Source of the DNA: Vicinamibacterales bacterium | GTDB lineage: Bacteria; Acidobacteriota; Vicinamibacteria; Vicinamibacterales; UBA8438 | Reading direction: 5' to 3' | DNA length: 64,000 bases | NCBI GenBank assembly: GCA_965262925.1 | Contig: CBDHGC010000004.1 | Span: 145,112-209,111, forward strand | Notes under the pieces: model-generated | The model's database searches: none | What the model saw: only the letters and a program-made list of their open reading frames with translations | Told to the model about the DNA's origin: nothing | Shown: piece by piece, positions 1-63,563 of the stretch | Position numbering within the stretch: position 1 is the first letter of the stretch | Layout of the letters: the number at the start of each line of letters is the position of its first letter | Position numbers and translations under genes: made by a program

Positions 1-47
1 GCTGCTTGGCACGCCTGGAACGCGGCAAGGTTATTCCCGTCAGTGTC
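1..47. mobile_element. Right-end fragment of a ~100-bp MITE, cut by the window edge
   Basis: Identical to 61502..61548 (right part of the MITE at 61449..61548) and again followed by CTAA(C). Confidence 0.6.
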
Positions 48-60
48 CTAACCCGGGTGG

Positions 61-214
61 GGTCGATCCCGTGAGTTCGGGGCAATCCGACCGTTCGATC
101 CCTCGAGGACTTCAGCGAAGGGTCCATCCCCGCCCGCGCGGGGATAGAGCGTCACCGAACCTAAAAGGAGGCGGTCGGATGCCGGGGGACCCCGCCCCGT
201 CGGGGACAGAACCG
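61..214 (+). CRISPR. Degenerate type I-E-like repeat mini-array A (3 repeat-like units, cas-less)
   Basis: Units GGTCGATCCCGTGAGTTCGGGGCAATCCGAC, GGTCCATCCCCGCCCGCGCGGGGATAGAGC and GGGGACCCCGCCCCGTCGGGGACAGAACCG. Stem starts at 68/128/190 give a 60 and 62 nt period. All have the same polarity. Confidence 0.4.
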
Positions 215-239
215 CGGCGACCGCGGTAGCATGGGCTGA

Positions 240-1025
240 ATGACGATTGAACAGCGGGTCAACGCCGCGGTGGACGAGATCGTCGCGGCGACCGCGCCGG
301 AGCAGATCGTGCTGTTCGGGTCGGTGGCGAAGGGGACCGCGGGCCCGAAAAGCGACATCGACCTGCTGGTGATCGGCGACCCTGCGCGGCACGCCGACGG
401 GAAGCACACCTGCACACGGACCGGTGACCAGGTCGACGTCTTCGTCACCGATCGCGCCAGTGCGGAGCGGTACCGCTACAGCGCGGCCTATCTGGAGGGG
501 ATCGCGCTGACGGAAGGCCGCACCGTCTACGCGAAGGATCCGGAGCGAGCGCTTGCGGCAGGAGAAGCCATGGTCAGACGCACGCTGTACGACCCCGACA
601 AGGCGGTCGAATGGGTCGAGGACGCCCGCGACCGACTCGAGCGCTTCGCGACGGACCAGAAGGACATCCACAAGTGCGAGTCCCTCGTCGATGCCCTGGA
701 GCGCGCGCTCAAGGCGCTGATCGTCGCCGGCGGACAGCGCGTGGCACACCGGCATGGACTCGACAAGCTCTGGACTCAGGCCGAGGCCATCGCCGGCCGG
801 TTGCCCCCGGGAATGACGGAAGCCAAGCTCAAGCACCTGACGAAGTACGCCGGCGAGTTCCTGTACCCGGCGCAGGGCGCTAGACAACTGAATGCGCACA
901 GGGTCTGGGAACAGTTCGAGGCCCCCATCGGCGACGTCGTGGAGTACGCCGAACGACGGGTACCGGAACTGGTGAAAGACACGCTGAGGCGTATCGAATC
1001 GGAGGGGAGGAACAATAACGGATAA
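240..1025 (+). CDS. Fused minimal nucleotidyltransferase (MNT) - HEPN protein, a single-chain toxin-antitoxin-like module
   Basis: 261-aa ORF. N-terminus has GSVAKGTAGPKSDIDLLV (Pol-beta NTase G-S...D-x-D). The C-terminal helical half has the R-x4-H motif (RVAHRH). Confidence 0.8.
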   Translation: MTIEQRVNAAVDEIVAATAPEQIVLFGSVAKGTAGPKSDIDLLVIGDPARHADGKHTCTRTGDQVDVFVTDRASAERYRYSAAYLEGIALTEGRTVYAKDPERALAAGEAMVRRTLYDPDKAVEWVEDARDRLERFATDQKDIHKCESLVDALERALKALIVAGGQRVAHRHGLDKLWTQAEAIAGRLPPGMTEAKLKHLTKYAGEFLYPAQGARQLNAHRVWEQFEAPIGDVVEYAERRVPELVKDTLRRIESEGRNNNG

Positions 1026-1038
1026 GCAAACAAGCAGA

Positions 1039-1509
1039 ATGCGACGAGCGGTGTCGGTGCTGCGAGTTGTCATCGTCGTCGGGCTGACGATGGCGTGCGG
1101 AGACGACGGGAGGCCGGTGGTGCCGACGTCGCCGACGCCGCAAATCCCACAAGTGGCTGGAACCTACAGGGGTCCGGTCACGATCTCATCGTCGACATTG
1201 GGCTCGGTCACAGGGTATGCCGAGATGCAGGTGGTACAGGCAGGAAGCCAAGTGACCCTGACCGGATCGCAGACGATTGCCGGTGATACGGTGCAACTCG
1301 CGGCCCTGACGGGAAGCATCAACACGACCGGGTTCTTCACGGTGAGCGCTGGGGGATCACACATCGACGGCGATGTTGAACCAACGTGCGGAAGATGGAA
1401 CATCACCACCGCGACTCGAACGTTCGTCGGGCGGACTCTGCAGATCGTAGTGAGCGCGATCACGACGTACTGTGGAGTGCTCGACTACTCGGCTACGCTG
1501 ACACGATGA
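1039..1509 (+). CDS. Secreted protein or possible lipoprotein of unknown function
   Basis: 156-aa ORF starting 14 nt after the previous stop. Hydrophobic signal peptide MRRAVSVLRVVIVVGLTMAC with Cys20; Thr/Gly/Ser-rich, beta-looking body. Confidence 0.55.
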   Translation: MRRAVSVLRVVIVVGLTMACGDDGRPVVPTSPTPQIPQVAGTYRGPVTISSSTLGSVTGYAEMQVVQAGSQVTLTGSQTIAGDTVQLAALTGSINTTGFFTVSAGGSHIDGDVEPTCGRWNITTATRTFVGRTLQIVVSAITTYCGVLDYSATLTR

Positions 1510-1530
1510 GATAGCCCGGCACGTGAGACG

Positions 1531-1885
1531 GTCGAGCCCCGCCGCGTCGCCGTTGCCGGCGCCGAACGACCGGCTAGTGCCTCGAAGCCTCTAGCTAGCT
1601 CCCCGCACTCACGGGGGCCTACCGCGGTATGCCATCTTCCGAATGCGCCAGCCACAGGCTACCCCGCACGCACGGGGAGCGACCACGGACACGGCCGCGA
1701 GAAAACGCGGAGGGTCAGCGCCGCTCCGCACACTCGGGGATGGAGACGAAGCCAGAACGTCCGCCAACAGCGCAAGCCGATCCAGAGAGCGGCAGCACGG
1801 GCCGTAGCCGCAGCATCCCGGCGTCGATATCCGAAAGACACAGACCGTGCCACCGGCCCCGTGTTGACGGGAATGGGCCCACCGA
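1531..1885 (+). CRISPR. Degenerate type I-E-like repeat array (3 clear plus 2-3 weak units, cas-less)
   Basis: Clear units have CCCCGC/CTCCGC stems starting at 1601, 1662 and 1724 (61 and 62 nt period): GCTCCCCGCACTCACGGGGGCCTACCG, GCTACCCCGCACGCACGGGGAGCGACCACG, GCCGCTCCGCACACTCGGGGATGGAGACG. Weaker units at ~1537, ~1787 and 1857 (CCCCGTGTTGACGGGAATGGGCCCACCG). Confidence 0.45.
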
Positions 1886-2020
1886 CAAGAATCCATTGGG
1901 ATCAGGATGACCACAAACACCGCCGAAGCGGGAGAGGACCGCGGCACTACGAGCTGCGTTTCGGCAACCTCAAAAGACGGCCGCAGGCCGCGGCGGCCAC
2001 CACCGACCGAAGAAGGAGCA

Positions 2021-2518
2021 ATGAACCCGATTGCGGCCGAAGTACGGCGACTGGCACGGCGCACCCGCCGCATGACGCTCGACGAGTGGGCGGAATACCG
2101 CACCGAGTACAAGCGCAAGACGCATCGGGATGCCGAGCCAGCGTGGCTCGGGCCATCAAGCGCATTCAGCGACCGCGAGGTGACGGCGGCGATGCGGCGG
2201 CAGTGGAGATACGAGGTCCCCGAGGCGCAGACCGGGCGCCAGAGCCAAGCCATCACGCACCGGCTGGCACTGGCTGGCGCAGGGTGGAAACGACCGCCGA
2301 GGGCCGCCGAATTCTACGACGCCGTGCGGGCGAAGCGACGAACGGCACGCCGGGCGTGCGTGATCGCCGCCTGGCTGCGCGAAGCGACCCTGCTCGAGTG
2401 GTGGTACGGCATCTTCGAAGGGGTCTACACATGGCGGCAGCTGGCCGAAGCCGTGCACGTCCAACGGCTAGGGCACTACCTGAACTGCGACCGACTGAAC
2501 GGGCGGAGCCAGGTATGA
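2021..2518 (+). CDS. Putative partner (antitoxin/regulator) of the downstream AbiEii-like NTase; member of a 3-paralog family
   Basis: ATG 5 nt after GAAGGAG. Stop overlaps the next start (ATGA). Shares the motif GW(K/R)xxPxxxEF(Y/C)xAVRA with the ORFs at 4155 and 4787. Confidence 0.6.
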   Translation: MNPIAAEVRRLARRTRRMTLDEWAEYRTEYKRKTHRDAEPAWLGPSSAFSDREVTAAMRRQWRYEVPEAQTGRQSQAITHRLALAGAGWKRPPRAAEFYDAVRAKRRTARRACVIAAWLREATLLEWWYGIFEGVYTWRQLAEAVHVQRLGHYLNCDRLNGRSQV

Positions 2519-3531
2519 ACAAGGACAAGGAACTGAAGCTGCACGGAACGCCAAAGGCGCTCTACGACCGCGTGCGCGCCGGACTTGAAGGCGAGACGCA
2601 GCGTGCCGGCCTGCCGCTGCACGTCGGCGGCGGCGGCGTGCTCGAAGCGCGCTGGGACCACCGCGAGAGCCTCGACATCGACGTCGTGATCCCGACAGAC
2701 AATCCGGACGCGGCGCGCAGCGCGCTGGACCGCGCGGCCGAGCAGAGCGGTGGATACCGGGTCCAGGGACCCGGATTCGACCGGATCGAGTTCCCGGACC
2801 GGCCGCAGGAAGAGCACGTCGACGTCGGCTTCAGCCAACCGACGCCCGCCAAGGGAGTCGAACACAGCAGCGTCAACGGGCGGCCAGCCGAGGTCCTGAC
2901 CTCGACACAGATCATGACGGCGAAGCTGACCCACCGCGGACTGAACGCGCCGGTGCGCGACGTCTTCGACGTGGCCGTGTGCGCGCGCATCGAACCGCGC
3001 GCTCTGGAGGCGGCCGTCAACGCCCAGGACGCCGAACGCCGGGGCGCAATCACCCGCATGTACGGCGTCATATCAGACGAACTCAAGGACCAAGCAAGCA
3101 GGGAACTCCGGAACGTCCGACCGACCTTCGCCGACATCGTCAAGGACCCGGCCGCTGCAGGCCAGAAGGCCATCGCCGACGCCACCTACCAGCGGGTCCA
3201 GATCCGATGCAAGGGAAAGACGGCGAGCATAACGACCGAGAGCAGGCTGGGGGAGTGGCAACGGACGTGCGGCTCGACAGCCGAGCTCGGGAAAGTGCTC
3301 GAGGAGCGGGGGCTGAAAGGGTTCTTCGAGGCCGAGAGCCAGCCGGTCGGACAATTGCTGGAGAGCGTCCGATCCGGCATGGAGCGCAACGAGACGGTGA
3401 CGATCGTGGACATGGGAGCGAGGCCAGCAGGGGTGCAGATGGCAGCGCCGACCCCAAGGCCAAGAAGCGCCCAGCAGGCGTTCGACGAGAGCCGGCGGCG
3501 CGAGACGCCGCCGCGCAAACGCAATCGGTAA
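2515..3531 (+). CDS. AbiEii/DUF1814-like nucleotidyltransferase (type IV TA / abortive-infection toxin family)
   Basis: N-terminal LHVGGGGVLEARWDHRESLDIDVVIP matches the GGTAL...R.S.DID signature of AbiEii-type NTases. Translationally coupled to the upstream ORF. Paralog at 5332. Confidence 0.7.
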   Translation: MNKDKELKLHGTPKALYDRVRAGLEGETQRAGLPLHVGGGGVLEARWDHRESLDIDVVIPTDNPDAARSALDRAAEQSGGYRVQGPGFDRIEFPDRPQEEHVDVGFSQPTPAKGVEHSSVNGRPAEVLTSTQIMTAKLTHRGLNAPVRDVFDVAVCARIEPRALEAAVNAQDAERRGAITRMYGVISDELKDQASRELRNVRPTFADIVKDPAAAGQKAIADATYQRVQIRCKGKTASITTESRLGEWQRTCGSTAELGKVLEERGLKGFFEAESQPVGQLLESVRSGMERNETVTIVDMGARPAGVQMAAPTPRPRSAQQAFDESRRRETPPRKRNR

Positions 3532-3584
3532 CCCGAATCAACGAAGGGGACGCGGGCGGGCGATGATCGCTTGGCCACAGCGAA

Positions 3585-3675
3585 AGGCAAGCGCCCTGGC
3601 GGGAAGACGTGCGACCAGAATGGCCCCGCCGGAAGGAGGTCATCCGCGCACCCCCGCATGCGCGGGGCAGCTGCG
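3585..3675 (+). repeat. Two CRISPR-repeat-like units directly upstream of the protease pseudogene
   Basis: GGTCATCCGCGCACCCCCGCATGCGCGGGGCAGC (stem start 3652), plus a weaker unit CGCCCTGGCGGGAAGACGTGCGACC (about 3594) 58 nt upstream. Confidence 0.35.
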
Positions 3676-3711
3676 CGAGACCAGGGGCGCCAGGGTCCTT
3701 ACGACCGGGAA

Positions 3712-4072
3712 ATGGTGGACCGAGGACACGGCCTCGAAGGCGAGGTCCGACGGACGACCGTCGACGGAATCGTGGACACCCTGGTGATTCCTGAAGAAGT
3801 CGCAAACGAGCTGGGGCTCCGGCGCAGAGGCACGAGGACGGTCGTGTACGCCGACGAACGCCGCGACCAACGGCCGGTCGGGAGAGGAGTGACGATCGAA
3901 ATCGGGAGCCTTCACCACAGAGAGCGAGTGCATGATCGGACCGGCGGGCAGCGAGGTGCTGATCGGCCAAGTAGTACTGGAGGCGCTGGACCTGATCGCC
4001 GATAGCACGAACCGAACAGTCACACCACGGCATCCCGAAGGACCAGTGCTGGCCCTCCGACGAGCGGGGTGA
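3712..4072 (+). pseudogene. Retropepsin-like (clan AA) aspartic protease, frameshifted
   Basis: N-part VDGIVDTLVIPEEVANELGL...VTIEIGS in frame 1. C-part ECMIGPAGSEVLIGQVVLEALDLIADSTNRTVTP continues in frame 2 from 3926 to the TGA at 4070. The frame change lies near 3905-3925. Confidence 0.65.
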
Positions 4073-4154
4073 GCAGCGACGACAGACGGCACAGCGGGTT
4101 CGCGAGTGGCGGGATCCGGCCCTGGAGCAATCCCCCACGCGGGACGTGCAAACG

Positions 4155-4790
4155 ATGAGCAAGGCGGAGCAAGCGAGGACGCAAAGGACCGCCAGCGAGT
4201 GGCGGCAGCGCAAGCTCGCACGCCGCCTGCGGGACGAGAACCCGCGACGCAACCGGACGCTGAAGGCGGCCACAGCGTTCGAGGACGAGAGGACGACCGG
4301 GGCGCGGCGCGCCGAGTGCGGCATCGAGCGCCAAGTGGACGAGCTTGGGCGAAACAGCCGGACAGTCGAGCGGCGGATCGCGAGCAGCTGCGCCGGTTGG
4401 AGACACGGGCCGAGCGCAGCGGAGTTCTGTGACGCAGTGCGCGCCGAAGGGCCGACACGACGGCAGATGTCTCTGATCGCGATGCGGGTACGCGGGGCGA
4501 GCGACGAAGAGCTGCTCCTGGCGTGGGCCGATGAGGTCTACAGCGACCGGATGCTGGTCGCAGCCATCCACGGCCGGAGCGGCCGATGCCAACCCGCAAC
4601 GCAACGCGGCACTGAACCGCTGGGCGAGAGGACGATGACCGAAGACGATACCGTCGAGGGGCTGCACCGCGTGTCGAGCATCGAGGAAGGCCTGGAGCGT
4701 CTCGTCGACGAGGGGCGAGTGGAAGCCCTGTGCATCGAGCGCGAGCGGGACGAGCCGGCCGCGCAGCTCGAAACGGAGCGGTCAGGATGA
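4155..4790 (+). CDS. Paralog of the 2021 partner family (GWRHGPSAAEFCDAVRA)
   Basis: ORF 4146..4790, with ATG at 4155 preferred. A repeat-like unit GGAGCAATCCCCCACGCGGGACGTGCAAACG (4124..4154) abuts the start. The stop overlaps the next ATG (ATGA at 4787). Confidence 0.55.
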   Translation: MSKAEQARTQRTASEWRQRKLARRLRDENPRRNRTLKAATAFEDERTTGARRAECGIERQVDELGRNSRTVERRIASSCAGWRHGPSAAEFCDAVRAEGPTRRQMSLIAMRVRGASDEELLLAWADEVYSDRMLVAAIHGRSGRCQPATQRGTEPLGERTMTEDDTVEGLHRVSSIEEGLERLVDEGRVEALCIERERDEPAAQLETERSG

Positions 4791-5329
4791 AGGTCCGACA
4801 GCTCCCGTACAGGGACTGCAACTCTCCAGGCATGCTCGAGCCGGACCGCGCCGAGCGCGACGACGAAGGCCCGCTGGAAGACATCGAGCTCGACGACGAC
4901 ACGCCGGCCGCCATCCTCGAGTACGCCCGCGAGCACGGGTACCGGCCGGCCTTCCCCCGGGTGCTGCCGCCCGAGCGCTTCAGCGACGCGCGAGCGACGC
5001 CGGACCAGTGCGCGATGGTCAACGCTCGGACGGGTCCGGACGACACCGGCCCGAAGAGCGAGATCATCCGGATGCGGCTGGCCTGCAGCTGCTCGGGTTG
5101 GAAGCGGCCGCCGACGAGCGAGGAGTTCTACGCCGCCGTGCGCGCCGAAACGCTGGACGAACGCCAGACGGCCATTCTCTACGCCTGGAGCAACGAGGCG
5201 AACGACGTCGAGATTCTGGACGGCTGGACCGAGGATGCCTACACGTTCCGGCAGCTGGCCGCCGCGCTCGAACGGGCCGGGATCGAACGCTGCGCGATCG
5301 CCGAGGCGCTGAACCGTCTGAGCATGTGA
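4787..5329 (+). CDS. Paralog of the 2021 partner family (GWKRPPTSEEFYAAVRA), upstream of the second AbiEii-like NTase
   Basis: Start coupled to the previous stop. The C-terminal half aligns by eye with 2021..2518. Confidence 0.6.
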   Translation: MKVRQLPYRDCNSPGMLEPDRAERDDEGPLEDIELDDDTPAAILEYAREHGYRPAFPRVLPPERFSDARATPDQCAMVNARTGPDDTGPKSEIIRMRLACSCSGWKRPPTSEEFYAAVRAETLDERQTAILYAWSNEANDVEILDGWTEDAYTFRQLAAALERAGIERCAIAEALNRLSM

Positions 5330-5331
5330 CG

Positions 5332-6390
5332 ATGGACGACCTCACACTGCCGAACCCGGCCCGTGGGTTCTGGCTCGAGACGCGCGACGCCGTGCGAAGG
5401 GCGCTGGAGCAACTGGAGCCGGGAATCGACTACCGGATCGGCGGCGGCACGATCCTCGCGGCCGGGTGGAAGCACCGCGGCAGCTTCGACATCGACATCC
5501 AGGTCGGCAAGGACACGAAGCTCGAGGAGCTGGAGAGCGGGGCCTACGGCTGGCTGCACGCCGAGATGGAAAGGCTCGGCGCAACAGCCCGGTACAACGC
5601 CGACCTGAACATGTACCGCATAAGGCGCGAGGAGGGAAGCGACACCAGCCGGGAAGTGCAGGTATGGGGCCACGAGCTGGAGATCGCAAAGGGCCACACA
5701 ACGGCGCGCGTCGAGGGGCGCGAGGAGACGGTGCTGTCGACGGCGCAGATCCTCCGCGGAAAGCTGGAGCGCGCGGGACGGCACCCGGCGCGCGACGTCT
5801 ACGACATCGACAGAGCAGCCGGGATCGAGCCGGTCAGCCTCGAGATCGCCGTCAACACGATGCGGCACGACCTGGTGGCAAAGGCGGCACTGACCTGGAA
5901 CGTCGCCTACTACGGGAGGATCGGCAACGAAGCGCGCCAACGCTTGGTGGGACTGGCGCCAGGAGAGGAACGACGCCACTACGAGATCGCGAAGACGGGT
6001 GCCAAGGCTCTGGTCGACGCGCGCTACGCCTACCTGCGACTGGGCGTCGAAGACGACCGGATCGTCGTCGAGGCGGTGACCCAGGCGAACAAGCACCGCC
6101 GGATAACGATGACGGCCAGCGGGGCCGACGAGCAGTTCGAGGCGAAGGGTATCAACGGCCACCTCCGGAACAAGGGGCCCGGCGCAAAGGCGCTACGCGA
6201 ATACGCCATCGAGCTGTGCCGCAAACGCGCCGGCGACATCCTCGTGTTCGAGGAAACCGGGGACAAAGAGACGCACTGGCGAACGGCCAGCAGCGGCAGG
6301 AACCTGACGATCATCGGACCGCAGAGGCCGGGGCGGATCACGGGCCCGGCCGGAGGCTGGGGCCGGCGCCGGGCGAGCTGGGGCCGATAG
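5332..6390 (+). CDS. AbiEii/DUF1814-like nucleotidyltransferase, second copy
   Basis: RIGGGTILAAGWKHRGSFDIDIQV near the N-terminus. Starts 2 nt after the previous stop. Same architecture as 2515..3531. Confidence 0.7.
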   Translation: MDDLTLPNPARGFWLETRDAVRRALEQLEPGIDYRIGGGTILAAGWKHRGSFDIDIQVGKDTKLEELESGAYGWLHAEMERLGATARYNADLNMYRIRREEGSDTSREVQVWGHELEIAKGHTTARVEGREETVLSTAQILRGKLERAGRHPARDVYDIDRAAGIEPVSLEIAVNTMRHDLVAKAALTWNVAYYGRIGNEARQRLVGLAPGEERRHYEIAKTGAKALVDARYAYLRLGVEDDRIVVEAVTQANKHRRITMTASGADEQFEAKGINGHLRNKGPGAKALREYAIELCRKRAGDILVFEETGDKETHWRTASSGRNLTIIGPQRPGRITGPAGGWGRRRASWGR

Positions 6391-6451
6391 CGCGACGCCG
6401 GCCGCCACGAGCGGCCTTGTAGGGAACCGCGAGAGAAGTAGAGTCGACGCA

Positions 6452-6792
6452 ATGAGCAAGGACACGAAGGCCATCATCGCGACGATCGTGGCGACGGCAG
6501 TAGCACTGGCCTGCTGATCAACCGCATCAGCAACGTGGGGAGCGAAGTCCGCGCCGTGGGGGAGGAGCTGAGCGGCCGCACCGACCGGCTCGACGACGAC
6601 CTGAGCGGCCGCACCGACCGGCGCGACGAGGAAATGGGCGGGCGCATCGAACGACTGCGGAGCGAGATGCTGGCCAACTACCACCGGCTGGACGAGCAGT
6701 TGCGGAGCGTCGAGCAGGGATTTGAGCGAATCGACCAGCGGCTGGAGATGCTGGAACGGGCGGTAATCCCGGCGGCCGAACCGGCGCAATAG
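6452..6792 (+). pseudogene. Small membrane-anchored coiled-coil protein, probably frameshifted near 6505
   Basis: ATG at 6452 gives MSKDTKAIIATIVATAVALAC then a stop. The next frame continues LLINRISNVGSEVRAVGEEL... with heptad-like RxD/L repeats to 6792. The ORF track begins at GTG 6535. Confidence 0.45.
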
Positions 6793-7020
6793 AACACACC
6801 CCGCCCACGCGAGGCGGAGCGGCAACCACCGCGAAACGCCGGCGAGCCGACGCAAAAGCCACCCGCGGGGACGGGAGCCGGCATCCGAGAACCAGAAACC
6901 TGCTTCGACGGAATCGCCCCGCACGCGCGGGGATGCACCGCGCGAACCCACCCAGGACGGACCGCAACTGGCAAGTAGTGGCCAGTTGGCGTGTTTTCCC
7001 CCGCACGTGCCGGGAACGCG
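6793..7020 (+). repeat. Degenerate type I-E-like repeat array B (4 units)
   Basis: Stems start at 6799, 6862, 6917 and 6999. Best units: GGAATCGCCCCGCACGCGCGGGGATGCACCG and GTGTTTTCCCCCGCACGTGCCGGGAACGCG. The latter resembles the classical I-E repeat GTGTTCCCCGCGCCAGCGGGGATAAACCG. Confidence 0.35.
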
Positions 7021-7168
7021 TCCGGACAAGGTGTGAGCCTGTCCGTGCTCGGAGCCGTGCGGGCTGCCGGAATTTACCCAGTGGCTCGATGGGCTCGATC
7101 CTGTCTGCGCATTCCGGTGAAACCGATCACCCGTTCCGGTGGCAAACCGATCACTCGTTCCGACGCAA

Positions 7169-11590: not shown

Positions 11591-12609
11591 TCAGAGTGCC
11601 TCAAGCCATTCAAGCACCGACGCGTCTGTGCGCCACAGCGCCGGCCCCGCCGTGGCGCGGGCGGTGGGGCGGGCCTTCGCGAGTGCCTGACGCTTCATGT
11701 CGAGATCGACGGTCGCGTACCGGTGCGTGGTCGTGATGCTGGCGTGACCGAGCCACTGACTGATCGTGACGACGTCGACGCCGGCGCGGAGCAGGTGAAC
11801 AGCCGTGCTGTGCCGCATGCTGTGGGGATGGAGGCGCTTGGTGCGCAAGGCCGGGACGGTGGCCTGCGCGTGGGTGCAGTACTTCTGCAGCAGATAGCGG
11901 ACGCCGAATCGTGTCAGCCGGGTCCCGCGGTGATTACGGAAGACCGGCTCGTCGGATTGCAGCTCGCGGCCGCGTTCGGCCAGCAGGGCACGCAGCAGGT
12001 CGGCGGTCTGGGGCCACAACGGGCAGACCCGCTCCTTCCGCCCCTTGCCCTGCAGGCGGACCTGCGCGGGCGTGTCCAAGCGCAGGTCGGCGACGCCCAG
12101 GGGACGATTTCCTGGACCCGCGCGCCGGTGTTGAACATGGTCGCGAGGAGCGCGTAGTCGCGGCGGCCGTCGACGGTGCCGCGATCGACGACGCCGAGGA
12201 TGGCCTCGATCTCCTCGTGCTCGAGGTACTCCACGAGGCGGCTGCCGGTACGCTTGAACGGGACGGCGAGGACGCGTTGACAGTGTGCGAGTCGTGCTGG
12301 GTACTCCAGGGCGCAGTACCGGAAGAACGCGTGGATCGCGGCAAGGCGTACGTTGCGGGTGGCGACGCTGTTGTGCCGGTCGAGCTCCAGGTACTGGAGA
12401 AACGCGAGGACCGGCTGGGGGCCGAGGTCGTCCAGGTCCAGCCGGATGACGGACCGCCGCGTCTGGGTTGCGACGAAGCGCAGCAAGAGCACCAAGCTGT
12501 CCCGATAGCTCCGGATGGTGTGGGGACTCGTCCCTCGCACCCGGGGCAGGTGGTCGGCGAAGAACGCCCGGAGGGCTCGCGCCAGATCGTTCGGGCCGGC
12601 GGCGGTCAT
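11591..12609 (-). pseudogene. Tyrosine recombinase (third gene of a recombinase-in-trio type element), frameshifted
   Basis: N-part MTAAGPNDLARALRAFFADHLPRVRGTSPHTIRSYRDSL. C-part HPHSMRHSTAVHLLRAGVDVVTISQWLGHASITTTHRYATVD (H-x-x-R, catalytic Y). The frame breaks in a C-run near 12100. The start overlaps the upstream gene stop (ATGA). Confidence 0.75.
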
Positions 12610-12829
12610 CGCGCACCTCCCGCGCCGATGGGTCCGGTGATGAGGTCGCCGCAGTGGTCGGCGAATCGCGCGCTGGCCGCGACCGCGAGGGGTTCGACGA
12701 ACTGGAGGTAGTACGCGGTCGAGACGATCGAGACGTGCCCCATGTAGGCGGCCAGGAAGGGCAGCTTCGCCTGCACGTCGAGTCCGGCGCGATACCACCG
12801 GAGGAGCGCGTTCACGGCGAATCCATGGC
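12606..12829 (-). pseudogene. Tyrosine recombinase C-terminal fragment (upstream trio member), 5-prime truncated at the palindrome
   Basis: RHGFAVNALLRWYRAGLDVQAKLPFLAAYMGHVSIVSTAYYL. Confidence 0.65.
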
Positions 12830-12853
12830 GCTTATTCCGATATCGGAATAAGC
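12828..12853. repeat. 26-bp perfect palindrome at the junction of two opposed recombinase elements
   Basis: CGCTTATTCCGATATCGGAATAAGCG. More TTATTCCG/CGGAATAA copies occur at ~12857, ~12873 and ~12950. Confidence 0.9.
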
Positions 12854-13012
12854 GACATTATTCGGGGATCCGGATTATTCCGAGTCGACTCCGTGTCGAC
12901 GGCGGGAGTGCTCGTAGTTTCAACGTGTTGAGAGGAACCACAGTGTTCGATATTCCGGAATAATCCCGTCTGTCTTCTCCCTCCGTCTTTCCCTCTGCAT
13001 GTCATCAGGAGG

Positions 13013-13459
13013 ATGGAGAAGACCATGTCGATTGACCTCTTTTTCCCCACGTCAGAGAGCCGACAACGGTTACGCGCCGGCCCGCTGGCCCGCGATATCG
13101 ACGGGTTCGCCGCCTGGCTGTCAGTTGAGGGATATGCCCGCCGGTCAGCCCGGGAGAAGCTCCGATTCGTCGGGAAGCTCAGCCGTTGGCTCGAACACGA
13201 AGAGCTTGGCGTCGAGACCCTCGACAAGCAGAGAATCGAGGCTTTCCTGGTCGCTCGCGGGTCAAGGAGCAGCCGGCGTGGCCAGGCAATGACCGGCCGG
13301 CAACTGCTGTGCTACTTGCGCGGGAGCAGCCTCATCCCTGCCGCCGTTTCCTGCCCCGGCAGTGACACTCCGATCGGGCGGATCGAACGAACCTACGAAC
13401 GGTTTCTGGTCGACGAGCGTGGCGTCAGTCCGGCGACGGTGACCAACTATCTGCCCATC
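13013..13459 (+). pseudogene. Tyrosine recombinase N-terminal (SAM-like domain) fragment, cut by IS copy 2
   Basis: SRQRLRAGPLARDIDGFAAWLSVEGYARRSAREK... ends exactly at the IS end (GAGCCTCTTGCAAAA at 13460). Homologous to the N-terminus kept in the 0.9-kb elements at 59 and 62.6 kb. Confidence 0.65.
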
Positions 13460-13599
13460 GAGCCTCTTGCAAAACCCTTGGTCGGCCGGGTTTTCCTACC
13501 CGAGGCAGAGGGAACGGACGGTCAGCGGGGTGGGACGCAGCGTTCGTAGGATTAGGATAGCAGCCGTCACCGGCGCCGGGGAACCGGAGACACGGGGTC

Positions 13600-13977
13600 T
13601 CAAGGGACCTCTGGGACCTCCCGGTCGGTTATGAGGGCGAGCGCGCGCGACGAGACGTGGCGCATTTCCCTCACGACCCGTTCCAGTTCGCGGTTGTTCT
13701 CGAGCCACTCCTGGTAGAGGGCGAGTTCGTCTTCGGAGAGCAGCAGGCTGACCGTTTTTCCGCGCACCTTGTGTGTCCAGTAGCGGTACGGGCCGTGACG
13801 CGCGTCCGGGTCGCGGTGGCAGCGGCAGGCAGGCTTCCCGCACGTGAGACGGCGGGTCTGGATACTGCCCTGGCGGACAAACCCGAGCGTTTGCAACTCC
13901 GCCTTGAGCGCATCGTATTGTTCGCTGTACCGGCGCATCGGGTTCCGGCGGCCCATCGGTTCCCTCCTTGACCTCAC
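13600..13977 (-). CDS. IS-borne small Zn-ribbon protein, paralog of 9691..10056
   Basis: MRRYSEQYDALKAELQ...CGKPACRCHRDPDARHGPYRYWT. Confidence 0.6.
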   Translation of the reverse strand: MRSRREPMGRRNPMRRYSEQYDALKAELQTLGFVRQGSIQTRRLTCGKPACRCHRDPDARHGPYRYWTHKVRGKTVSLLLSEDELALYQEWLENNRELERVVREMRHVSSRALALITDREVPEVP

Positions 13978-14020
13978 TCCTACACTACTATATATAGTAG
14001 GCGCTGGGAGCAGTCAAGCC

Positions 14021-14742
14021 ATGCAGAACCTGCGCGCCTCGTTCGCCGCCTACTGGGAGTCAATCCAACAGGGCCTGTTTCCCCGGTTGGAGCAGGTGTT
14101 GGGTTCGCTGACCGAGAAACAGCAGCAGTTGGTGCAGACCCTCGAGGTGATCCGTATCGAGCAGATGATTCCCTCGCGCTTGCGGATGCCGGGCCGCCCC
14201 CGCAAGGACCGCGCGGCGGTGGCGCGCGCCTTCGTCGCCAAGGCGGTCTACGACATGCCGACCACGCGCCTGCTGCTGGACCGGTTGGCCACCGACGTGG
14301 TGCTGCGCCGCATCTGCGGCTGGGAGCGGCGGCGCGAGATGCCAAGCGAGTCGGTCTTCTCTCGCGCCTTCGCCGAATTCGCCCACTCCCAGTTGCCCCA
14401 GCGCGTGCATGAAGCGTTGCTCCGGAAGACGCACGGCGACCGTTTGGTGGGCCATCTGTCCCGAGACTCGACGGCCATCGAGGGGCGCGAGAAGCCGGCC
14501 GCGAAGGAGAAGTCGCCTCCGCCGCCCAAGCGCAAGCGGGGGCGGCCGAAGAAGGGTGAAGAACGGCCCAAGACACGCAAACGCCTCGACCGGCAACCGA
14601 GCATGACCCTGCAGGAGATGCTCGACGACCTGCCGGCCGAGTGCAGTGTGGGCACGAAGAAGAACAGCAAGGGCTACAGGGACACCTGGGTCGGCTACAA
14701 GTTGCACATCGACGTGGCCGACGGCCAGATTCCGGTCAGTTG
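14021..14742 (+). CDS. Transposase of IS copy 2, exon-like part 1
   Basis: Colinear with 10106..10827 of copy 1, up to ...GQIPVS then TG. Confidence 0.75.
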
Positions 14743-16449
14743 GTGCGCCGTGCGAAGGCGCCATTCCTCAGCGGGTGCGAATCCCGCCCGGCAACTGTCG
14801 CTCCAGCCGGTAGCAGTCGGAGCGGACGATGGAGGTAACGACATCGGCTGAAGCACTCTGATGACAAAGGGTCGCCTTGGGCGGCCCAGCGACCATGCGG
14901 GCGGTAGCGCGAGCGAACGCCGAGCAGGCCTCGAAACGATTGATGCGGAAGCCGACTCGCCCAATTGACGAGGAAGGCTGGCATGGGTCGGGAAGCGAGC
15001 GACGCAGACACCGACCGATTCCGCCGGGGTAGTGGCGACGGCACGCATGGAAGAGGGGAATGGACGCAACACGGGAAGCCCTGGCGGTGGCGTGGCACGC
15101 GCCAACCGACAGCCCGCGAGGGTCAGGTCGGGCCGTGCAGGGTGGCGGAGAGGCCCGTAGTGTGCGCCAGGCAGCGCACTGGTCAGGAGGGTTGAAGTCC
15201 CTCCGGCCCCCGGATGAGGGGGGCCGTATCCAAAGGCGGGGGTAATGCCTCGCCGGCCGCAGGTGGCAGGTATGGAGACACCTACACGGGCACGCAGGCG
15301 AAAGCTGGACACAGCCAAGGTGGACCTGGAGCCGCCACGACGGAACTGCGGAGGACAGGGCGCCCACCGTGAGGTGGGGTCCGAAGGGTTTGCGGAGCAG
15401 TACCGGGCCGTAGTCGAGGGGGCGACCCCATGACGAACCGGTCGGCCAAAGGTGGGGCAAGGTCGAGCCTGCACTACAGAGGCGAAGGCGATCTCATCCA
15501 CCCACCGCACCAAGGTGTTTGCGGGCGGCACGGTATGGAAGACCAGTGCGTGACCCTGGGAGACCTCGGCGGGTCCGCGGGTGGCGCCGCGGCAACTGAC
15601 CCTATAAGCGAGAGCGAAGTGGGAAGGGATGCTCGTCGAGGAGTCGGACGGCCGAATAGTACCTGAAGCGCGGTGAAAGCCGCGTGACCGTCAGGGGGCG
15701 GCAACCGAGTGGGTTGGGGAAGGCGGCCGGCGAAGACGGTCGGGACCAGACAGGACGGTGAGATGAGCAAGGGCGCTGAGGTGGACAGTTCCATGAGTGA
15801 AATACCCCAACATCAGCGACCGAGGAGACTTGCCGACTGGCTGAACCCGACGGGCCGGAGGAGGGTTCCACTCTTTGATTCCTCCATCGGTCCTCATCAC
15901 GCGAAGACGTCTTCGTGAAAGCGGTATGCGGGAAAACCGCACGTACCGTTTGAGCGGCGGACGGAGGCCAGCGCCCGCGGGGCGCGCCTCCTCCGACCCG
16001 ACACCGGGGAAACCGGGTAATGCCGGCGGAGGGAAGGGACCTCAGGTGGACAGCGATGGCGAAAGGGAGCAGGCTCACGGGAGTGGCCGACGGCCTAGTA
16101 CCCCGGAGATGAGCAGAAATGCCGGACGTCATCACATGCACAAGCGAAGGGGACGACCCGAACGGTCGCTGTCGCCAGGGCGTCAACAGGCCTGACGACG
16201 CACCGGCCGGCCTGCGCAAGGGTGCGAGCTTGGTGCCACGGCTCGCGAGACCCGCCCGCTGGTCGTGACCGGGAACTCGTGTGCGAGCCGCATGATTCCA
16301 CTGGAGAGCCCGGTGCCGGAAATCGGCACGCCGGGTTCGGAGAGCGGGGGGAGGAAACGTGTCCACGGGAATCGGCCTGCGGCCCGGCTGCGAAAGCACC
16401 GGATGTGCCACCGACCCCCTACCGGCTACGCGCCTCCCCTCGACTCTAC
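14743..16449 (+). ncRNA. ORF-less group II intron-like insert (1707 nt) with two canonical domain V hairpins, possibly nested or tandem introns
   Basis: Starts GTGCG and ends CTAC. DV-like AAGCGGTATGCGGGAAAACCGCACGTACCGTTT at 15919..15951 and GAGCCCGGTGCCGGAAATCGGCACGCCGGGTTC at 16306..16338 (AGC triad, 2-nt bulge, GAAA loop). No RT ORF. Removing it restores a 1140-nt ORF, the same length as copy 1. Confidence 0.6.
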
Positions 16450-16867
16450 CATCCTGACGTCCGCCTCGCTGCACGACAGCCAGGCCGCCGTTCCACTGGC
16501 CACCCTGTCGGCCCAGCGGGTGGACAATCTGTATGACCTGATGGATGCCGCCTACGACGCGGTGCAGATCCGCGAGCACAGCCGCGCACTCGGCCACGTC
16601 CCGCTGATCGATATCAACCCCCGCCGTGACACTGCGCTGGCCGAAGAACTGCAGACCGAAGCCCGGCGCCTGAAGCGTCTCGGCTTGCAGCTTCCCGAAC
16701 AGGTTCGGTACAACGAACGCACGGCGGGTGAGCGCGTCAATGGCCGACTCAAGGACGAGTTCGGCGGGCGCCACGTCCGAGTCCGCGGCAACGCGAAGGT
16801 GATGTGCCACTGCATGTTCGGCGTGCTGGCGCTCACCGCCGACCAGCTCCTGCGGCTGGTGACGTAA
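16450..16867 (+). CDS. Transposase of IS copy 2, exon-like part 2
   Basis: C then ILTSASLHDSQAAVPL... to the stop. Colinear with 10828..11245 of copy 1. Confidence 0.75.
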
Positions 16868-17806
16868 ACCAACGCCTCGCCGGCCAACGCGCATCCCCTT
16901 CCGGTCGCCCGACAGGCGTCAGTCACCAACCGGTGTCTCCAACGCCCGGTGGGAAAACCCTCGAACTCCCTGATTTCCGCCTCTTGGGTCGCCGCCGGTC
17001 CTCCCGCCCCGCATTCTCGGTCGGGATCCAGGCAAAACGATGTTCACCAGAAGAACTTGTGCTCCGAGCCGAGCTACGCCAAGAGTTTTGCAAGCGGCTC
17101 TGGCGTCTGGCGAATGTCTGGTCAGGCTGCTGCACACGTCCACGAACGGTTACATCCTCCAGCCATACAATCCGGCCCACCACGCGCGGTTGGTAGAGCA
17201 AGGAGAGATCGAAGCGATGCACGTAATCGTGTACTCGCGGAGCATCGGCCCGGACGACCACGCGATGTCGATGTCGGTTTGATGGCTACGGAGAAGATCC
17301 TCTGGACCCACGCATTGCGGACGCAGGAGGGAGAGCAAATGCGGGGACGGGCAAAGACGCCGGTCAGGTCTTGTGCTTGTGGTTCTTGAGGGACACTGAC
17401 TGGGAGGAAAGGATGGGGACCGGGCCGACGTAGTTCGCAAGACCCTGCGGCGTTTTGCCGCGGTTGAGATCCGGTTGCTGCTCGAGGAAGCCGAGCGTAT
17501 CAAGGACCACAAGCTGGTCGAGCACCTGCACGACGTGCTGCCTGGAGCTGCCGGCTGCCCGGCGCGTGCTGCACCAAACCTGCACTAAACCCTACGGCGC
17601 TTCGCCGGGGCGTTGATCGAGGAGCTGTCCACCGGTCGGGTGGCGTGCGGCTGGTCGGCCGCGGCAGTGGGTCTGGTTCGACGTTTCCCGTCGCTGGGTC
17701 TGGGCCGGTCCTACGGCACGGGGTTGCCGGCGACGGACCCTCCGAGGCGATCTTTTGCCGCCGGCTGGCGAAGGGGGGTTCGAGCGGCGGCGGGTTCCGC
17801 GCGGCG

Positions 17807-21742: not shown

Positions 21743-23395
21743 ATGCAGATGGCGGCGATTTACACGCGCGTGTCCTCGAACCAGCAGCGCGAAGCGCACA
21801 CGATCGCGAGCCAGACGGCGGCGCTGGTCGATTGGGCCGCGACGCTCGATCTGGAGGCGCCCCAGCAATGGATCTTCGAAGACGAAGGCTATAGCGGGGC
21901 GACTCTCGAACGGCCGGGATTGGAACAGGTGCGCGACCTCGCAGCCGCCGGCGACATCCAGGTGGTGCTCGTGCACAGTCCGGATCGGCTGAGTCGGAAG
22001 TACGCCTACCAGGTGCTGTTGATCGAAGAGTTCGGACGTCACGGGGTCGAGACCCGGTTCCTCAACGGCCCGTCGAACGCTACCGCCGAGGATCAGCTGC
22101 TGGTGCAGTTTCAGGGCATGATCGCCGAGTACGAACGCGCTCAGATTCTCGAACGGTCGCGTCGTGGCAAGCGCCACCGCGCGCGAGCCGGTGAGATCAG
22201 TGTCCTGGGCGGCGCTCCCTATGGTTATCGCTACATTCGCAAGCGTGAGGACAATCCCGCAGCGTACATCGTCATCGACGCCGAAGCGCGCGTTGTCCGC
22301 GACGTCTACGAGCACTACACCGTCACGGGCTGGAGCATCGCGGCGATCACCCGCTGGCTCAACGAGCAAGGCGTGCCCACGCGGAAGGTCGGCACCCGTT
22401 GGGAACGCTCCACCGTATGGGCGATGCTGCGCAACCCGGCCTATCGCGGCACGGCGTGCTTCGGCAAGACGCAACGAGCCCACCGGCAGCGCGTGACGCG
22501 CCCACTACGGCTGCGCGGCGGCGCCGCCAGTCGCGACAGTGCGAACCACGAACGGCCGCGCGAGGAATGGATCGAGATCCCGGTGCCGGTGATCGTGGAC
22601 GAGTCGACCTTCGCGCGCGCACAGGAACTGCTGCACGAGAACAAGGTGCACGCCCGGCGGCGCACGCTCGAACCGAGCCTCGTACAGGGGCTCGTGAGTT
22701 GCCAGAAATGTGGCTACGCGCTCTCTCGCGCGTCGGCCCGGTCGAGCGCCCGGAAGATTCACTACTACCGCTGCATCGGATCCGACGGGTGGCGGCACCT
22801 CGGCGGCCCCCGGTGCGACACGCGCCCCGTGCGGCAGGACCTGTTGGACGAGGTCGTCTGGACCGAAGTGATACGGTTGCTTGAGGAACCGGCACTGATC
22901 CAACAGGAACTGGACCGCCGGCTGGCCGCCGCTCAGGCTGCTGACCCCGCGAAGACCCGCACGCAGGCGGTGGAGCGGGACCTCGCGCGAGTCGGGAAGA
23001 GCATGGAACGGCTGCTCACCGCCTACCAGGAGGATCTGCTGTCGCTTGAGCAGCTACGCGAGCGGATGCCGTTGCTGCGTCAACGCGAGCAGACGCTACG
23101 CCACGAGTTGAACGCTTTGGTCGAGCAGACTCGCGAGCGCGCCGCGCATCTGCGCCTGGCCGAGACCCTGTCAGCGTTTCTCACGCGCCTGCGCGCCGCG
23201 GCCGCGGCGCTCGACATCGTGGAGCGGCAGCGAATCGTGCGCCTCGTCGTCAAAGAGGTCCTCGTCAATGACGACACGATCGTGATCCGCCACTGCATTC
23301 CCGTGCCCTCGGGACCACCGCCAACGAACGGTGGCGGACCGAACAAGGACGCCGACAACGCCGCGGACCCTCGAAGTTACCTTTTGCGTTCGGGG
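21743..23395 (+). pseudogene. Large serine recombinase, extreme 3-prime end replaced by a group II intron remnant
   Basis: AAIYTRVSSNQQ catalytic-Ser motif, resolvase domain, recombinase domain, Zn-ribbon CQKCGY...YYRC and a coiled coil. The frame runs into unrelated sequence after ...SYLLRSG. Confidence 0.85.
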
Positions 23396-24065
23396 AGTAG
23401 CGAGCCCGCTCCTGGCCAATATCTTCTTGCACCTCGCGTTCGACGACTGGATGCGGTCGACGCACCCGGACGTTCCGTTCGAGAGGTACGCGGACGATAT
23501 CGTCGCGCACTGTCGGACGGAGACGCAGGCGCAGCAGGTCCTGTCGCACATCAAACGTCGTCTGGCGCAATGCCGGCTGGACGTCCATCCGGAGAAGACG
23601 CACATCGTCTACTGTAAGGATGACGACCGGCCGGGGCAGTATCCCACGGAGCAGTTCACCTTCTTGGGATACACGTTTCGCTCGCGTCGGTCGAAGAATC
23701 GGTGGGGTAAGTACTTCATCAACTTCGCGCCGGCAGTGAGTAATGCGGCAGCGACGCGGATGCGACAAGCGCTGCGACGTCGGCACCTCCCTCGGCGCTG
23801 CGACAAGGCCATCGACGACCTGGCCCGCATGTGGAATCCTGTCCTTCGAGGGTGGATTCAATACTACGGCCGTTTCTACAAATCGGCCCTGTATCCGGTC
23901 TTTCGCCACTTCAATGGCCTGTTGGTTCGATGGGCCATGCGGAAATACAAGAGGCTACGGCGACATCGCCGTCGAGCCAGTCACTGGCTCGGTGGCCTTG
24001 CTCGTCGCGAGCCCCGGCTGTTCGCCCATTGGCATCTGCTGGGGGTGACGCCGGCGGCTGGATGA
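23385..24065 (+). pseudogene. Group II intron reverse transcriptase/maturase, 5-prime truncated
   Basis: SPLLANIFLH, RYADDIV (the YADD box) and maturase X-domain RGWIQYYGRFY. Confidence 0.8.
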
Positions 24066-24068
24066 TGG

Positions 24069-24145
24069 GAGCTGTATGAGCGGAGACGTTCACGTACAGT
24101 TCTGCGAGCGCCCGGGGGTGAGATTCCCCCGGGCGACTCACCTCG
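24069..24145 (+). ncRNA. Group II intron domains V-VI (3-prime end of the truncated intron)
   Basis: 34-nt DV GAGCTGTATGAGCGGAGACGTTCACGTACAGTTC right after the RT stop, followed by a GC hairpin with a bulged A. Confidence 0.6.
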
Positions 24146-58433: not shown

Positions 58434-58571
58434 GTGGATCGTGAACTGCACAACGACATCAAGAAACTCGCCTCGAAGATCGAACGACCAGCCGAGGTCA
58501 TGTTGCGACGAGCACTGCGCCGACTGGTCACCGACGCAATGAAGGGACGAGGGAACAAGTACATCGATTAG
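58434..58571 (+). CDS. Ribbon-helix-helix (CopG/Arc-like) domain ORF without a clear start
   Basis: LTIHVDRELHNDIKKLASKIERPAEVMLRRALRRLV. The only in-frame start candidate is GTG 58434. The frame is continuous with ORF 57765..58313 except for a TAG at 58311. Confidence 0.4.
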   Translation: MDRELHNDIKKLASKIERPAEVMLRRALRRLVTDAMKGRGNKYID

Positions 58572-61548: not shown

Positions 61549-61552
61549 CTAA

Positions 61553-63549: not shown

Positions 63550-63563
63550 CGCAAAACAGAACA

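Follow-up and report, generated by a model that had tools for sequence, protein, structure and literature searches.

Worn-down type I-E CRISPR repeats between toxin-antitoxin and Abi gene cassettes in Vicinamibacterales

A stretch of 64,000 nucleotides from a Vicinamibacterales bacterium (contig CBDHGC010000004.1, positions 145,112 to 209,111; called the window below) was analysed with respect to short G+C-rich hairpins that lie between the genes of its first 7 kb. The window has a G+C content of 66.6%, and its first 7.2 kb hold nine tightly packed genes, all on the + strand. An earlier interpretation of the letters alone (the sequence-only reading) had described these as a row of toxin/abortive-infection (Abi) cassettes, which is a fair label, although curated Pfam cut-offs are reached by genes 1 and 4 only. 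The hairpins between the genes are worn-down type I-E CRISPR repeats. The genes of the row are as follows.

Gene 1: 240-1025, + strand, MNT-HEPN fusion, toxin-antitoxin-like (Pfam NTP_transf_2 39.8 bits, Polbeta 33.6 bits, HEPN 23.7 bits)
Gene 2: 1039-1509, + strand, 156 amino acids, signal- or lipoprotein-like N-terminus, no family match
Genes 3 and 4: 2021-3531, + strand, 165-amino-acid partner and 338-amino-acid AbiEii-like nucleotidyltransferase; stop and start overlap at 2515-2518
Gene 5: 3712-4072, + strand, small open reading frame (ORF) with an apparent frameshift near 3930, no family match
Genes 6, 7 and 8: 4155-6390, + strand, two paralogues of gene 3 (211 and 180 amino acids) and a 352-amino-acid paralogue of the AbiEii-like gene 4
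Gene 9: 6453-6792, + strand, small membrane-anchor and coiled-coil protein; 85-amino-acid ORF at 6535-6792, upstream part frameshifted

A covariance model built from 11 units was run unfiltered over all 64 kb. It recovered only ten units in the window, those used in its training, with scores of 20-35 bits that were always higher on the + strand than on the - strand, and the best match that was not a unit reached 15.9 bits. Units are named below after the position of the stem, and the conserved 3' part of the repeat is called the handle.

u68: 61-93, + strand, GGTCGAT-CCCG-loop-CGGGG-CAATCCGACCG, degenerate I-E-type repeat (20.2 bits)
u128: 121-157, + strand, GGTCCAT-CCCCGC-CCGC-GCGGGG-ATAGAGCGTCACCG, recombination junction (34.8 bits)
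u190: 183-214, + strand, CCCCGC-CCCG-TCGGGG-ACAGAACCG, 34 nt before the ATG of gene 1 (26 bits)
u1601: 1594-1624, + strand, CCCCGC-ACTC-ACGGGG-GCCTACCG (25 bits)
u1662: 1655-1688, + strand, CCCCGC-ACGC-ACGGGG-AGCGACCACGG, right partner in the deletion of locus L013 (31.2 bits)
u1724: 1717-1750, + strand, CTCCGC-ACAC-TCGGGG-ATGGAGACG (26.9 bits)
u1857: 1850-1884, + strand, CCCCGT-GTT-GACGGG-AATGGGCCCACCG, overlaps a promoter-like site (21.7 bits)
u3652: 3645-3680, + strand, CCCCGC-ATGC-GCGGGG-CAGCTGCG (30.7 bits)
u6917: 6910-6940, + strand, AATCG-CCCCGC-ACGC-GCGGGG-ATGCACCG, best-preserved I-E repeat of the window (33.7 bits)
u6999: 6992-7024, + strand, CCCCGC-ACGT-GCCGGG-AACGCGTCCGG, last unit of the row (27.2 bits)
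Decayed lattice positions: 1530-1565, 1780-1815, 3587-3620, 4126-4154, 6792-6830 and 6855-6885, + strand, on the 61-nt lattice, below the E=10 level

The sequence-only reading had listed 16 units, ten of which stand as objective hairpins; the other six (1537, 1787, 3594, 4133, 6799 and 6862) miss E<=10 and are lattice positions only. All ten are intergenic and co-directional with the genes, in agreement with the single polarity that had been claimed. Units had also been placed in every intergenic gap, which did not hold for the gaps 1025-1039 and 6390-6453 nor for the overlapping gene junctions. Three had been described as lying immediately upstream of the start codons at 240, 3712 and 4155; the last of these (4133) is weak, and 34 and 44 nt separate the other two from the start codon. 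The exact hairpin CCCCGC-N3-8-GCGGGG was found five times in the window (0.42 expected), and the 16-nt form CCCCG-N6-CGGGG in six copies, all within positions 1-7000 and all reading CCCCGC on the + strand. Spacings within gaps were 60, 62, 61, 62, 133 and 82 nt, so that the proposed period of 60-64 nt was borne out in four of six cases (60-62 nt), and the probability of at least four spacings of 59-63 nt under random placement was about 5e-5. Tandem Repeats Finder reported none of the window arrays and Rfam (gathering thresholds and E<=10) nothing CRISPR-like; for such tools the units are too short and have diverged too far.

Short G+C-rich intergenic palindromes, beside one of which insertion sequences have landed, could in principle be generic repetitive extragenic palindromes (REP) or intrinsic terminators of a G+C-rich genome, their likeness to I-E repeats and their period being coincidental. 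Such an origin is very improbable here: no such hairpins occur in the other 57 kb of the window, in the comparison loci L018 and L019 or in the rest of L003, they keep to one orientation and to the 61-nt period (P of about 5e-5), and u6917 is nearly identical to a genuine I-E repeat. As for terminators, no unit is followed by a run of T, and a scan of the + strand reported only 6965-6988, between u6917 and u6999. The check for a motif dispersed in both orientations, which the sequence-only reading had proposed, likewise gave none outside array loci (57 kb of the window and unrelated loci).

In a similarity search with the concatenated gaps, multiple unannotated places on Streptomyces plasmids were matched. 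The I-E repeat of a Streptomyces albidoflavus plasmid (GTCGGCCCCGCACGCGCGGGGATGCTCC) is present in 39 copies with a strict 61-nt period, and u6917 (AATCGCCCCGCACGCGCGGGGATGCACCG) is 96.6% identical to it over 29 nt, with few differing positions. Arrays of the form CCCCGC-N4-GCGGGGATGAACC directly adjoin type I-E cas genes in two control loci, of which L080 carries a Cas3-Cse1-Cse2-Cas7-Cas5-Cas6e module and L082 a full I-E operon including cas1-cas2, with about 80 identical repeats (CTGTTCCCCGCAGGCGCGGGGATGAACCG). The repeat family was therefore assigned to type I-E on the basis of sequence, length, period and cas association (L080, L082). All features of an I-E repeat (28-29 nt, stem, 3' AT..ACCG handle) are present in u6917, and most other units of the window retain the stem only. 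Repeats alternating with unique spacers of 32-33 nt at 61 nt were found in the window (four of six spacings) and, as long runs of exactly 61 nt, in the sister loci described below, the spacers of window and sister loci being mutually unrelated. The I-E resemblance noted earlier thus stands, and the ACCG end attributed to the units lies at a variable distance (5-11 nt) from the stem. The divergence claimed between units was also evident, 108 of 120 stem positions and 36 of 70 positions of the 7-nt handle being conserved. Position 400-600 of locus L015 is A+T-rich and lies about 170 nt upstream of the first recognisable units; it is dissimilar to the leader of L082. In L082 itself, three arrays at 11900-17600 are separated by - strand genes (229 amino acids, 281 amino acids and DUF29), and I-E arrays interrupted by genes are hence also known from this soil sample series in the immediate neighbourhood of a complete cas operon.

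Homologues of gene 1 (65-97% identical) proved to be common. One of them, protein P0019 of Vicinamibacterales metagenome-assembled genomes (MAGs; 82% identical to the gene 1 protein), is encoded on many long-read contigs, including ctg118113 of ENA ERZ26694896, which is circular and 7.15 Mb long, and also in GTDB genomes named Vicinamibacterales (Acidobacteriota). GTDB MAGs with such loci are CBDCHF01, OZ244976, CBDBOU01 and CBDCCY01. In the P0019 loci the covariance model gave hundreds of matches; these loci have 30-60 well-kept I-E repeats at 60-62-nt spacing, and the repeats are canonical (5 nt, CCCCGC-N4-GCGGGG and ATGAACCG, 61-nt period). At least 60 repeats were counted within 20 kb of L037, where they form 8-9 arrays and follow one another at 60-62 nt, and 34 are present on a second contig of the same MAG. 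In loci of this type the arrays are separated by + strand FitA-PIN (VapBC), HicAB and AbiEii pairs and an MNT-HEPN gene. Counts of handle-bearing repeats on the gene strand and on the other strand were 50:0, 46:0, 30:2, 29:0 and 30:0 in five loci. The 61-nt arrays are unlikely to be assembly artefacts, given that long reads of at least six samples, assembled independently, contain them. In a more distant genome (71% gene 1 homologue) the gene is flanked by six units, and in two other genomes by none.

Some genes of the sister loci occupy the exact position of a spacer. In L039, the sixth repeat of one array ends in ATGAACC and is followed, three bases on (GGA), by the ATG of a 119-amino-acid ORF, the TAG stop codon of which lies in the loop of the next repeat; seven bases past that repeat (AGAGACG) another ATG opens a 151-amino-acid ORF, and an 84-amino-acid ORF spans the repeat after it. 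Among the possibilities raised by the sequence-only reading, a decayed array invaded by cassettes was therefore the one supported, and it could be extended, as the sister loci contain well-preserved I-E arrays interleaved with homologous toxin-antitoxin (TA) and Abi cassettes. Positional counterparts of the three units that precede gene 1 were found in L047 and L084 (genomes with 71-97% gene 1 protein identity), where 25 of 36 stem positions (69%) are identical relative to 50 of 123 (41%) in the rest of the aligned non-coding DNA. One of these counterparts, in L047, corresponds to u68; u190 travels with gene 1, which it precedes in the window, L003, L008 and L084, and its counterpart in L047 is degenerate. 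That the hairpins belong to the AbiEii cassette family was ruled out, no units being found at homologues of 90% (L018) and 58% (L019) identity. The whole 21 kb of L018 consists of a long row of small same-strand genes with A/C-rich, T-poor spacers and no hairpin units, representing another cassette-row architecture.

The hairpins are also the breakpoints of cassette gain and loss, which had not been noticed in the sequence-only reading. In the window's species, a segment that includes genes 1 and 2 is polymorphic.

Polymorphic segment: 144-1677, + strand, comprising the tail of u128, u190, genes 1 and 2, lattice position 1537, u1601 and the hairpin of u1662; absent from L013

At position 103 of L013 the sequence reads aagggtccatCCCCGCCCGCGCGGGG/agcgaccacgg (the stroke marks the junction), that is, a precise hairpin-to-hairpin deletion with the crossover in CGGGGA, leaving a hybrid hairpin with the left flank, stem and loop of u128 and the tail of u1662. 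L003 and L008 become homologous to the window only from within u128 onwards, the left flank and loop being different and the right arm and tail the same. Altogether, three different left halves precede the gene 1 segment in this species, and in L003 the segment stands behind a lone hairpin outside any array. Among seven strain variants of the P0019 locus, 19 of 34 distinct edges of homology blocks fell within a repeat (repeats making up about 8% of the sequence), the remainder being ends of insertion sequences or Tn3 elements. L037, L039 and L041 part exactly after ATGAACC of one shared repeat, and L040 carries a deletion from repeat 3 to repeat 9 that left a hybrid repeat. Loops and 5' flanks differ between repeats and could thus serve as barcodes: where related spacers were found in different contexts, the loop of the downstream repeat was kept in 93% and its 5' flank in 87%, relative to 57% and 64%, respectively, for the upstream repeat. 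This places the crossover between loop and spacer, in the right stem arm and handle, GCGGGGATGAACC being the longest invariant stretch of the repeat.

Precise exchange of cassettes at hairpins is also what would be expected if the hairpins were attachment sites of an integron-like platform, where a nearby tyrosine recombinase would cut at CGGGG/A, excise cassette circles and insert them after other hairpins. The recombinase nearest to the row is the following.

Tyrosine recombinase: 11591-12616, - strand, about 1.1 kb past the last unit when insertion sequences are discounted (NCBIfam XerC 104 bits, cut-off 335)

This gene shows synteny with L011, and tyrosine recombinases are found at one end of other rows too. 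The same-strand, densely packed, TA-rich cassettes, the precise cassette-sized deletion between two hairpins in L013, the gene 1 segment behind three unrelated left halves (once behind a lone hairpin, in L003) and the clustering at these sites, known also from attC, of insertion sequences and group II introns all fit such a platform. However, the side and orientation of the recombinase differ between loci, and with the integron integrase model TIGR02249 (cut-off 265 bits) the recombinase at 11591-12616 scored 39.8 bits and a second neighbouring one 30.4 bits, three others giving no match; an integron integrase identity was rejected, the recombinase of the window and the others being generic Xer-like proteins. 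Inspection of the gaps showed neither the R''/L''-L'/R' architecture of attC nor its GTTRRRY core, and folding of whole gaps as single-stranded DNA gave no attC-like structure beyond 6-bp stems (z = -2.2 and -0.35). Moreover, regular unique inserts of 32 nt at a 61-nt period are a signature of Cas1-Cas2 and not of cassettes, the crossover lies where homology alone predicts it (the longest identical stretch), and some junctions are off the hairpins (L024). An integron-like platform was consequently considered improbable, and recombination between the repeats would rather be driven by homology or microhomology than by a dedicated recombinase. An element of about 95 nt (..ATGTnGGACTCAATGT..GCCGGTGCG..GTTACAGCC) is conserved at L003 9795-9888 and L024 400-495, where it ends at the left arm of a hairpin, directly before a cassette, and a core similar to it (GGACTCAAT) lies at L015 550-570, in the A+T-rich stretch upstream of the array. 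As a candidate shared attI-like site, the element was present in just two loci (L003 and L024) and not in the window.

Different parts of the repeat have been conserved unequally. In 124 distinct units of sister arrays, the handle ATG(A/G)ACC was 85-94% conserved and the stems 96-100% (the latter partly through sample selection), the four loop bases carried 0.4-0.8 bit and the five bases before the stem were nearly random. The repeats of one CRISPR array are normally identical, and those of the active control array L082 are so, with no such variation of loop and flank. The sister arrays are for this reason old and without renewal. In the window's species, handle and 5' flank have largely been lost and six of 16 lattice positions have become unrecognisable, the G+C-rich stem being kept in ten units. 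Stem and 5'-handle are the parts of an I-E repeat that are read by Cas6e and Cascade in the recognition of CRISPR RNA (crRNA), and the pattern points to selection on the stems, whether by a Cas6e elsewhere in the genome or through a role of the hairpin in RNA or DNA that would be independent of Cas.

The absence of cas genes from the 64 kb, stated by the sequence-only reading, was confirmed, as no Cas domain was detected in about 50 coding-like ORFs of the window. An upstream walk (890 nt via L015, and further context via L084) also gave no cas genes. The left edge of the window is formed by a miniature transposon.

Miniature transposon, right part: 1-48, + strand; 101 nt in full, inverted ends GGACAGTGA/TCAGTGTCC, target duplication TAA

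It was inserted in the array between the unit at L015:830 and u68, which are 62 nt apart once it is removed; a second, full copy is present at 61449-61549. L015 additionally carries an ORF-less group II intron of about 870 nt (868-1800) within this transposon.

A use of the hairpins together with an I-E system elsewhere in the genome would explain why they are retained: Cas6e could cut a long cassette transcript at these sites into stable monocistronic RNAs, the repeats could be decoys resembling RNA anti-CRISPRs, or they could be guides of the CreA/crlRNA kind through which Cascade represses the promoters of neighbouring toxin and Abi genes. Consistent with this, the stems of the window are far better kept than handles or flanks, handles in the sister loci are kept together with the stems as loop and 5' end drift, conservation of position extends to the hairpins in front of gene 1 (71-97% protein identity), the units are co-directional with the genes, the unit of recombination equals the Cas6e-cut crRNA unit, and type I-C systems are known in which a solitary repeat unit comes after a CRISPR-supervised defence gene (bioRxiv 10.1101/2024.12.27.630466). 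On the other hand, neither the window nor the 10 kb around related loci contain cas genes, the window handles are too diverged for Cascade loading, six lattice units have fully decayed, and local matches of seed plus protospacer-adjacent motif (PAM) are at chance level. In the window, four spacer seed matches (10/10) were found (shuffled sequence: mean 1.6, maximum 6), and L037, L039 and L044 had 4, 4 and 1 matches relative to 5.0, 3.4 and 3.4 after shuffling; an AAG-type PAM was lacking in the window and in these three loci. Such a retained function is on balance unlikely. Its guide version had been put forward by the sequence-only reading as regulation of the CreA/CreR type, and fails on two counts, the units having neither a cas operon around them nor a pseudo-spacer that matches a promoter. 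RNA anti-CRISPRs, raised there as well, are not favoured, because the units are remnants of multi-spacer arrays and not solitary promoter-driven repeats. If an I-E operon with a CCCCGC....GCGGGGATGAACCG array were present in the host genomes, use of the hairpins in trans would be supported.

Taken together, the locus is probably a mosaic of relic I-E arrays and TA/Abi cassettes that has been shuffled through recombination between the repeats. One long same-strand array, or several, in a genomic island of Vicinamibacterales type would have given rise to a mosaic of repeat-spacer units and cassettes, which is rearranged by crossover in the right stem arm and handle (GCGGGGATGAACC). What moves as one unit is thus a handle with its spacer or cassette, plus the part of the following repeat that extends from the 5' flank through the left arm to the loop. 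Decay has gone further in the window's species, with the stems still acting as breakpoints, and TA cassettes, being addictive, may persist by resisting deletions provoked by the repeats, as has been proposed for chromosomal integrons.

Several observations weigh against this relic-array mosaic. The near-identity of repeats expected within an array was not found in the window, where units share little beyond the stem, and even good sister arrays vary in loop and 5' end; plain decay accounts for that variation only if stems and handle are under selection. The contrast between stem and handle in the window partly reflects ascertainment, the units having been found by their stems. No Cas protein was found among the genes called up to 10 kb away from eight related contexts, and membership of a working I-E system is consequently putative; a search for Cas6e on the contigs that bear these loci gave no match among 732 candidates scored, at low sensitivity. 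Spacers gave no convincing match to 50,697 phage records, and an exact scan of IMG/VR with two of them gave no match, neither set containing phages of this order. A 90% homologue of genes 3 and 4 in L018 (ENA ERZ26694896 ctg117555, a 526-kb circular contig) has no hairpin units, and L024 joins the window at 3698/3699, that is, 31 nt past the u3652 hairpin and not within it. Window spacers compared with the window and the other loci gave only chance matches of 10-14 nt. Independently of this locus, stretches resembling one to several I-E units are present in Saccharomonospora phage PIS 136 (JX006077 15680-15885) and, near 34.6 kb, in Streptomyces phages of the AxeJC group, and could be phage-borne mini-arrays or repeat mimics.

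A bolder interpretation, which we hold only tentatively and regard as unlikely, is that Vicinamibacterales have co-opted I-E repeats as a platform for gene cassettes. Genes would then be giant spacers and their mRNAs would be released from the array transcript, on which expression would depend, by Cas6e cuts at the conserved stems. Defence and TA genes would be captured, lost and exchanged via the repeats, either by homology or by Cas or other enzymes acting at the 3' base of the hairpin. The window would then represent a copy in decay, independent of cas and no longer in need of any part of the repeat but the stem.

Several further features of the row and its surroundings were recorded. For gene 1, the NCBIfam MntA-like match was under the cut-off of that model, and PADLOC, run on the nine cassette proteins, returned weak nucleotidyltransferase candidate families for gene 1 and nothing else. 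A 13-nt string (CGCGGCGACCGCG) occurs at 213-225, between u190 and the start of gene 1, and again at 284-296, 44 nt inside it; the upstream copy is part of the palindrome CCGCGG-CGA-CCGCGG (215-229), a possible operator of the MNT-HEPN gene. Paralogy links gene 3 with genes 6 and 7 and gene 4 with gene 8 (blastp 7e-19 for 3/7, 6e-16 for 3/6 and 3e-18 for 4/8). The first 7.2 kb contain a single match to a sigma-70-like promoter (TTGACG-17-AAGAAT, 1864-1892), which overlaps u1857 and ends 15 nt before the ATG at 1907. Just 5' of u1601 lies CTAGCTAG (1589-1596), into which two different insertion sequences have gone in other contigs, namely an IS3-family element in six of them and an element with a different DDE transposase in L005; L002 has a stack of several more insertion sequences at CTAG. 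L003 carries an Asp_protease-like gene.

The stop codon of gene 9 lies 6 nt before lattice unit 6799, and small proteins of its kind, in which a single membrane helix is combined with a coiled coil made up of short RxDxL-type repeats, were repeatedly found to adjoin I-E repeats, those of the active L082 array among them; they resemble one another only weakly (blastp 6e-5 to 1e-3).

Small coiled-coil proteins beside repeats: window 6453-6792; L039 11189-11548 and 12175-12429; L041 11429-11698; L082 about 17100-17330 (- strand)

In the rest of the window, insertion sequences, group II introns and recombinases of the serine and tyrosine types predominate, and a small number of genes are phage-like or have housekeeping functions. 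Group II introns were located at 14743-16449 and 23000-24145 (Rfam RF02003 and RF00029), one of them inside an IS5-like transposase gene that itself interrupts a trio of tyrosine recombinases. A tandem repeat of 328 nt is present at 63135-63789 (2 copies, 91%), with related copies at 58560-58900 and 61790-62100, and segments of about 700 nt at 59000-59720 and 62300-63060 form an inverted pair that contains tyrosine-recombinase fragments and the hairpin CCCCGCGGAGCGGGG.

CRISPR arrays are usually seen as lists of short spacers, and here ordinary I-E repeats frame whole TA and Abi genes, an arrangement that recurs in several soil Acidobacteria. If general, it would mean that defence islands can be built up and varied along a second route, similar to that of integrons, and it offers a tangible example of arrays prone to recombination that addiction modules stabilise or parasitise. 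The retention of stem and handle, with loop and 5' end free to vary, makes it testable whether orphan arrays use Cas in trans or have a Cas-independent hairpin role. Such loci will be overlooked or mis-called by CRISPR finders that need identical repeats and short spacers.

Relative to known systems, the locus shares with the type I-E arrays of E. coli, Streptomyces and Thermus (and of L082 and L080) the CCCCGC-N4-GCGGGG stem, a 3' handle of the ATG(A/G)ACCG type, the 61-nt period, unique inserts of 32 nt, a single orientation and deletions from repeat to repeat. It differs from them in having no adjacent cas genes, no clear leader and TA/Abi genes in spacer positions, and in that neighbouring repeats differ in the loop and the first 5 nt, and in the window also in the handle. 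With orphan or degenerate arrays it shares the absence of cas, mutated repeats, no sign of recent spacer uptake and variation solely through deletion, duplication and recombination. Unlike in those, decay has been uneven, the stems (and in relatives the handle too) having been preserved, and the locus type is found in several genomes, at two places in one MAG, with dense defence cassettes. Sedentary chromosomal integrons are similar in their long same-strand rows of mostly promoterless, small, TA-rich cassettes, their structured boundary repeats at which cassettes are gained and lost, and their group II introns and insertion sequences, and TA modules plausibly protect superintegron rows from deletion. 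Here, however, there is no IntI and no attC, the boundaries are CRISPR repeats and 32-nt spacers, and recombination looks homology-driven.

CRISPR-supervised systems of type I-C have solitary repeat units after defence genes, with a pseudo-spacer that matches a promoter, and CreTA/crlRNA units resemble those of the window as degenerate repeat-like units beside toxin or defence genes (Shu et al., bioRxiv 10.1101/2024.12.27.630466). Those units are single, lie inside cas operons and have a PAM-flanked promoter match, whereas the present ones are many, outside any cas operon and with chance matches only. RNA anti-CRISPRs (Racr) are solitary repeat units of phages and plasmids, close to the repeat of the host (Nature 2023, PMC10651486), and share with this locus repeat mimics without cas on a mobile-looking, defence-rich island; the units here are remnants of multi-spacer arrays with diverged handles. 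The sequence-only reading had remarked that the arrangement is not normally seen, and in the literature searched no description was found of genes in the spacer positions of a CRISPR array. The nearest published parallel is that of the Sulfolobales, in which vapBC pairs are interspersed in cas gene cassettes and a maintenance role has been proposed for them (Life 2015, PMC4390879). TA pairs are interwoven with CRISPR loci in both; in the Sulfolobales, archaeal TA pairs stand among cas genes and the arrays are regular, whereas in the Vicinamibacterales the TA genes stand in the spacer positions of the array itself.

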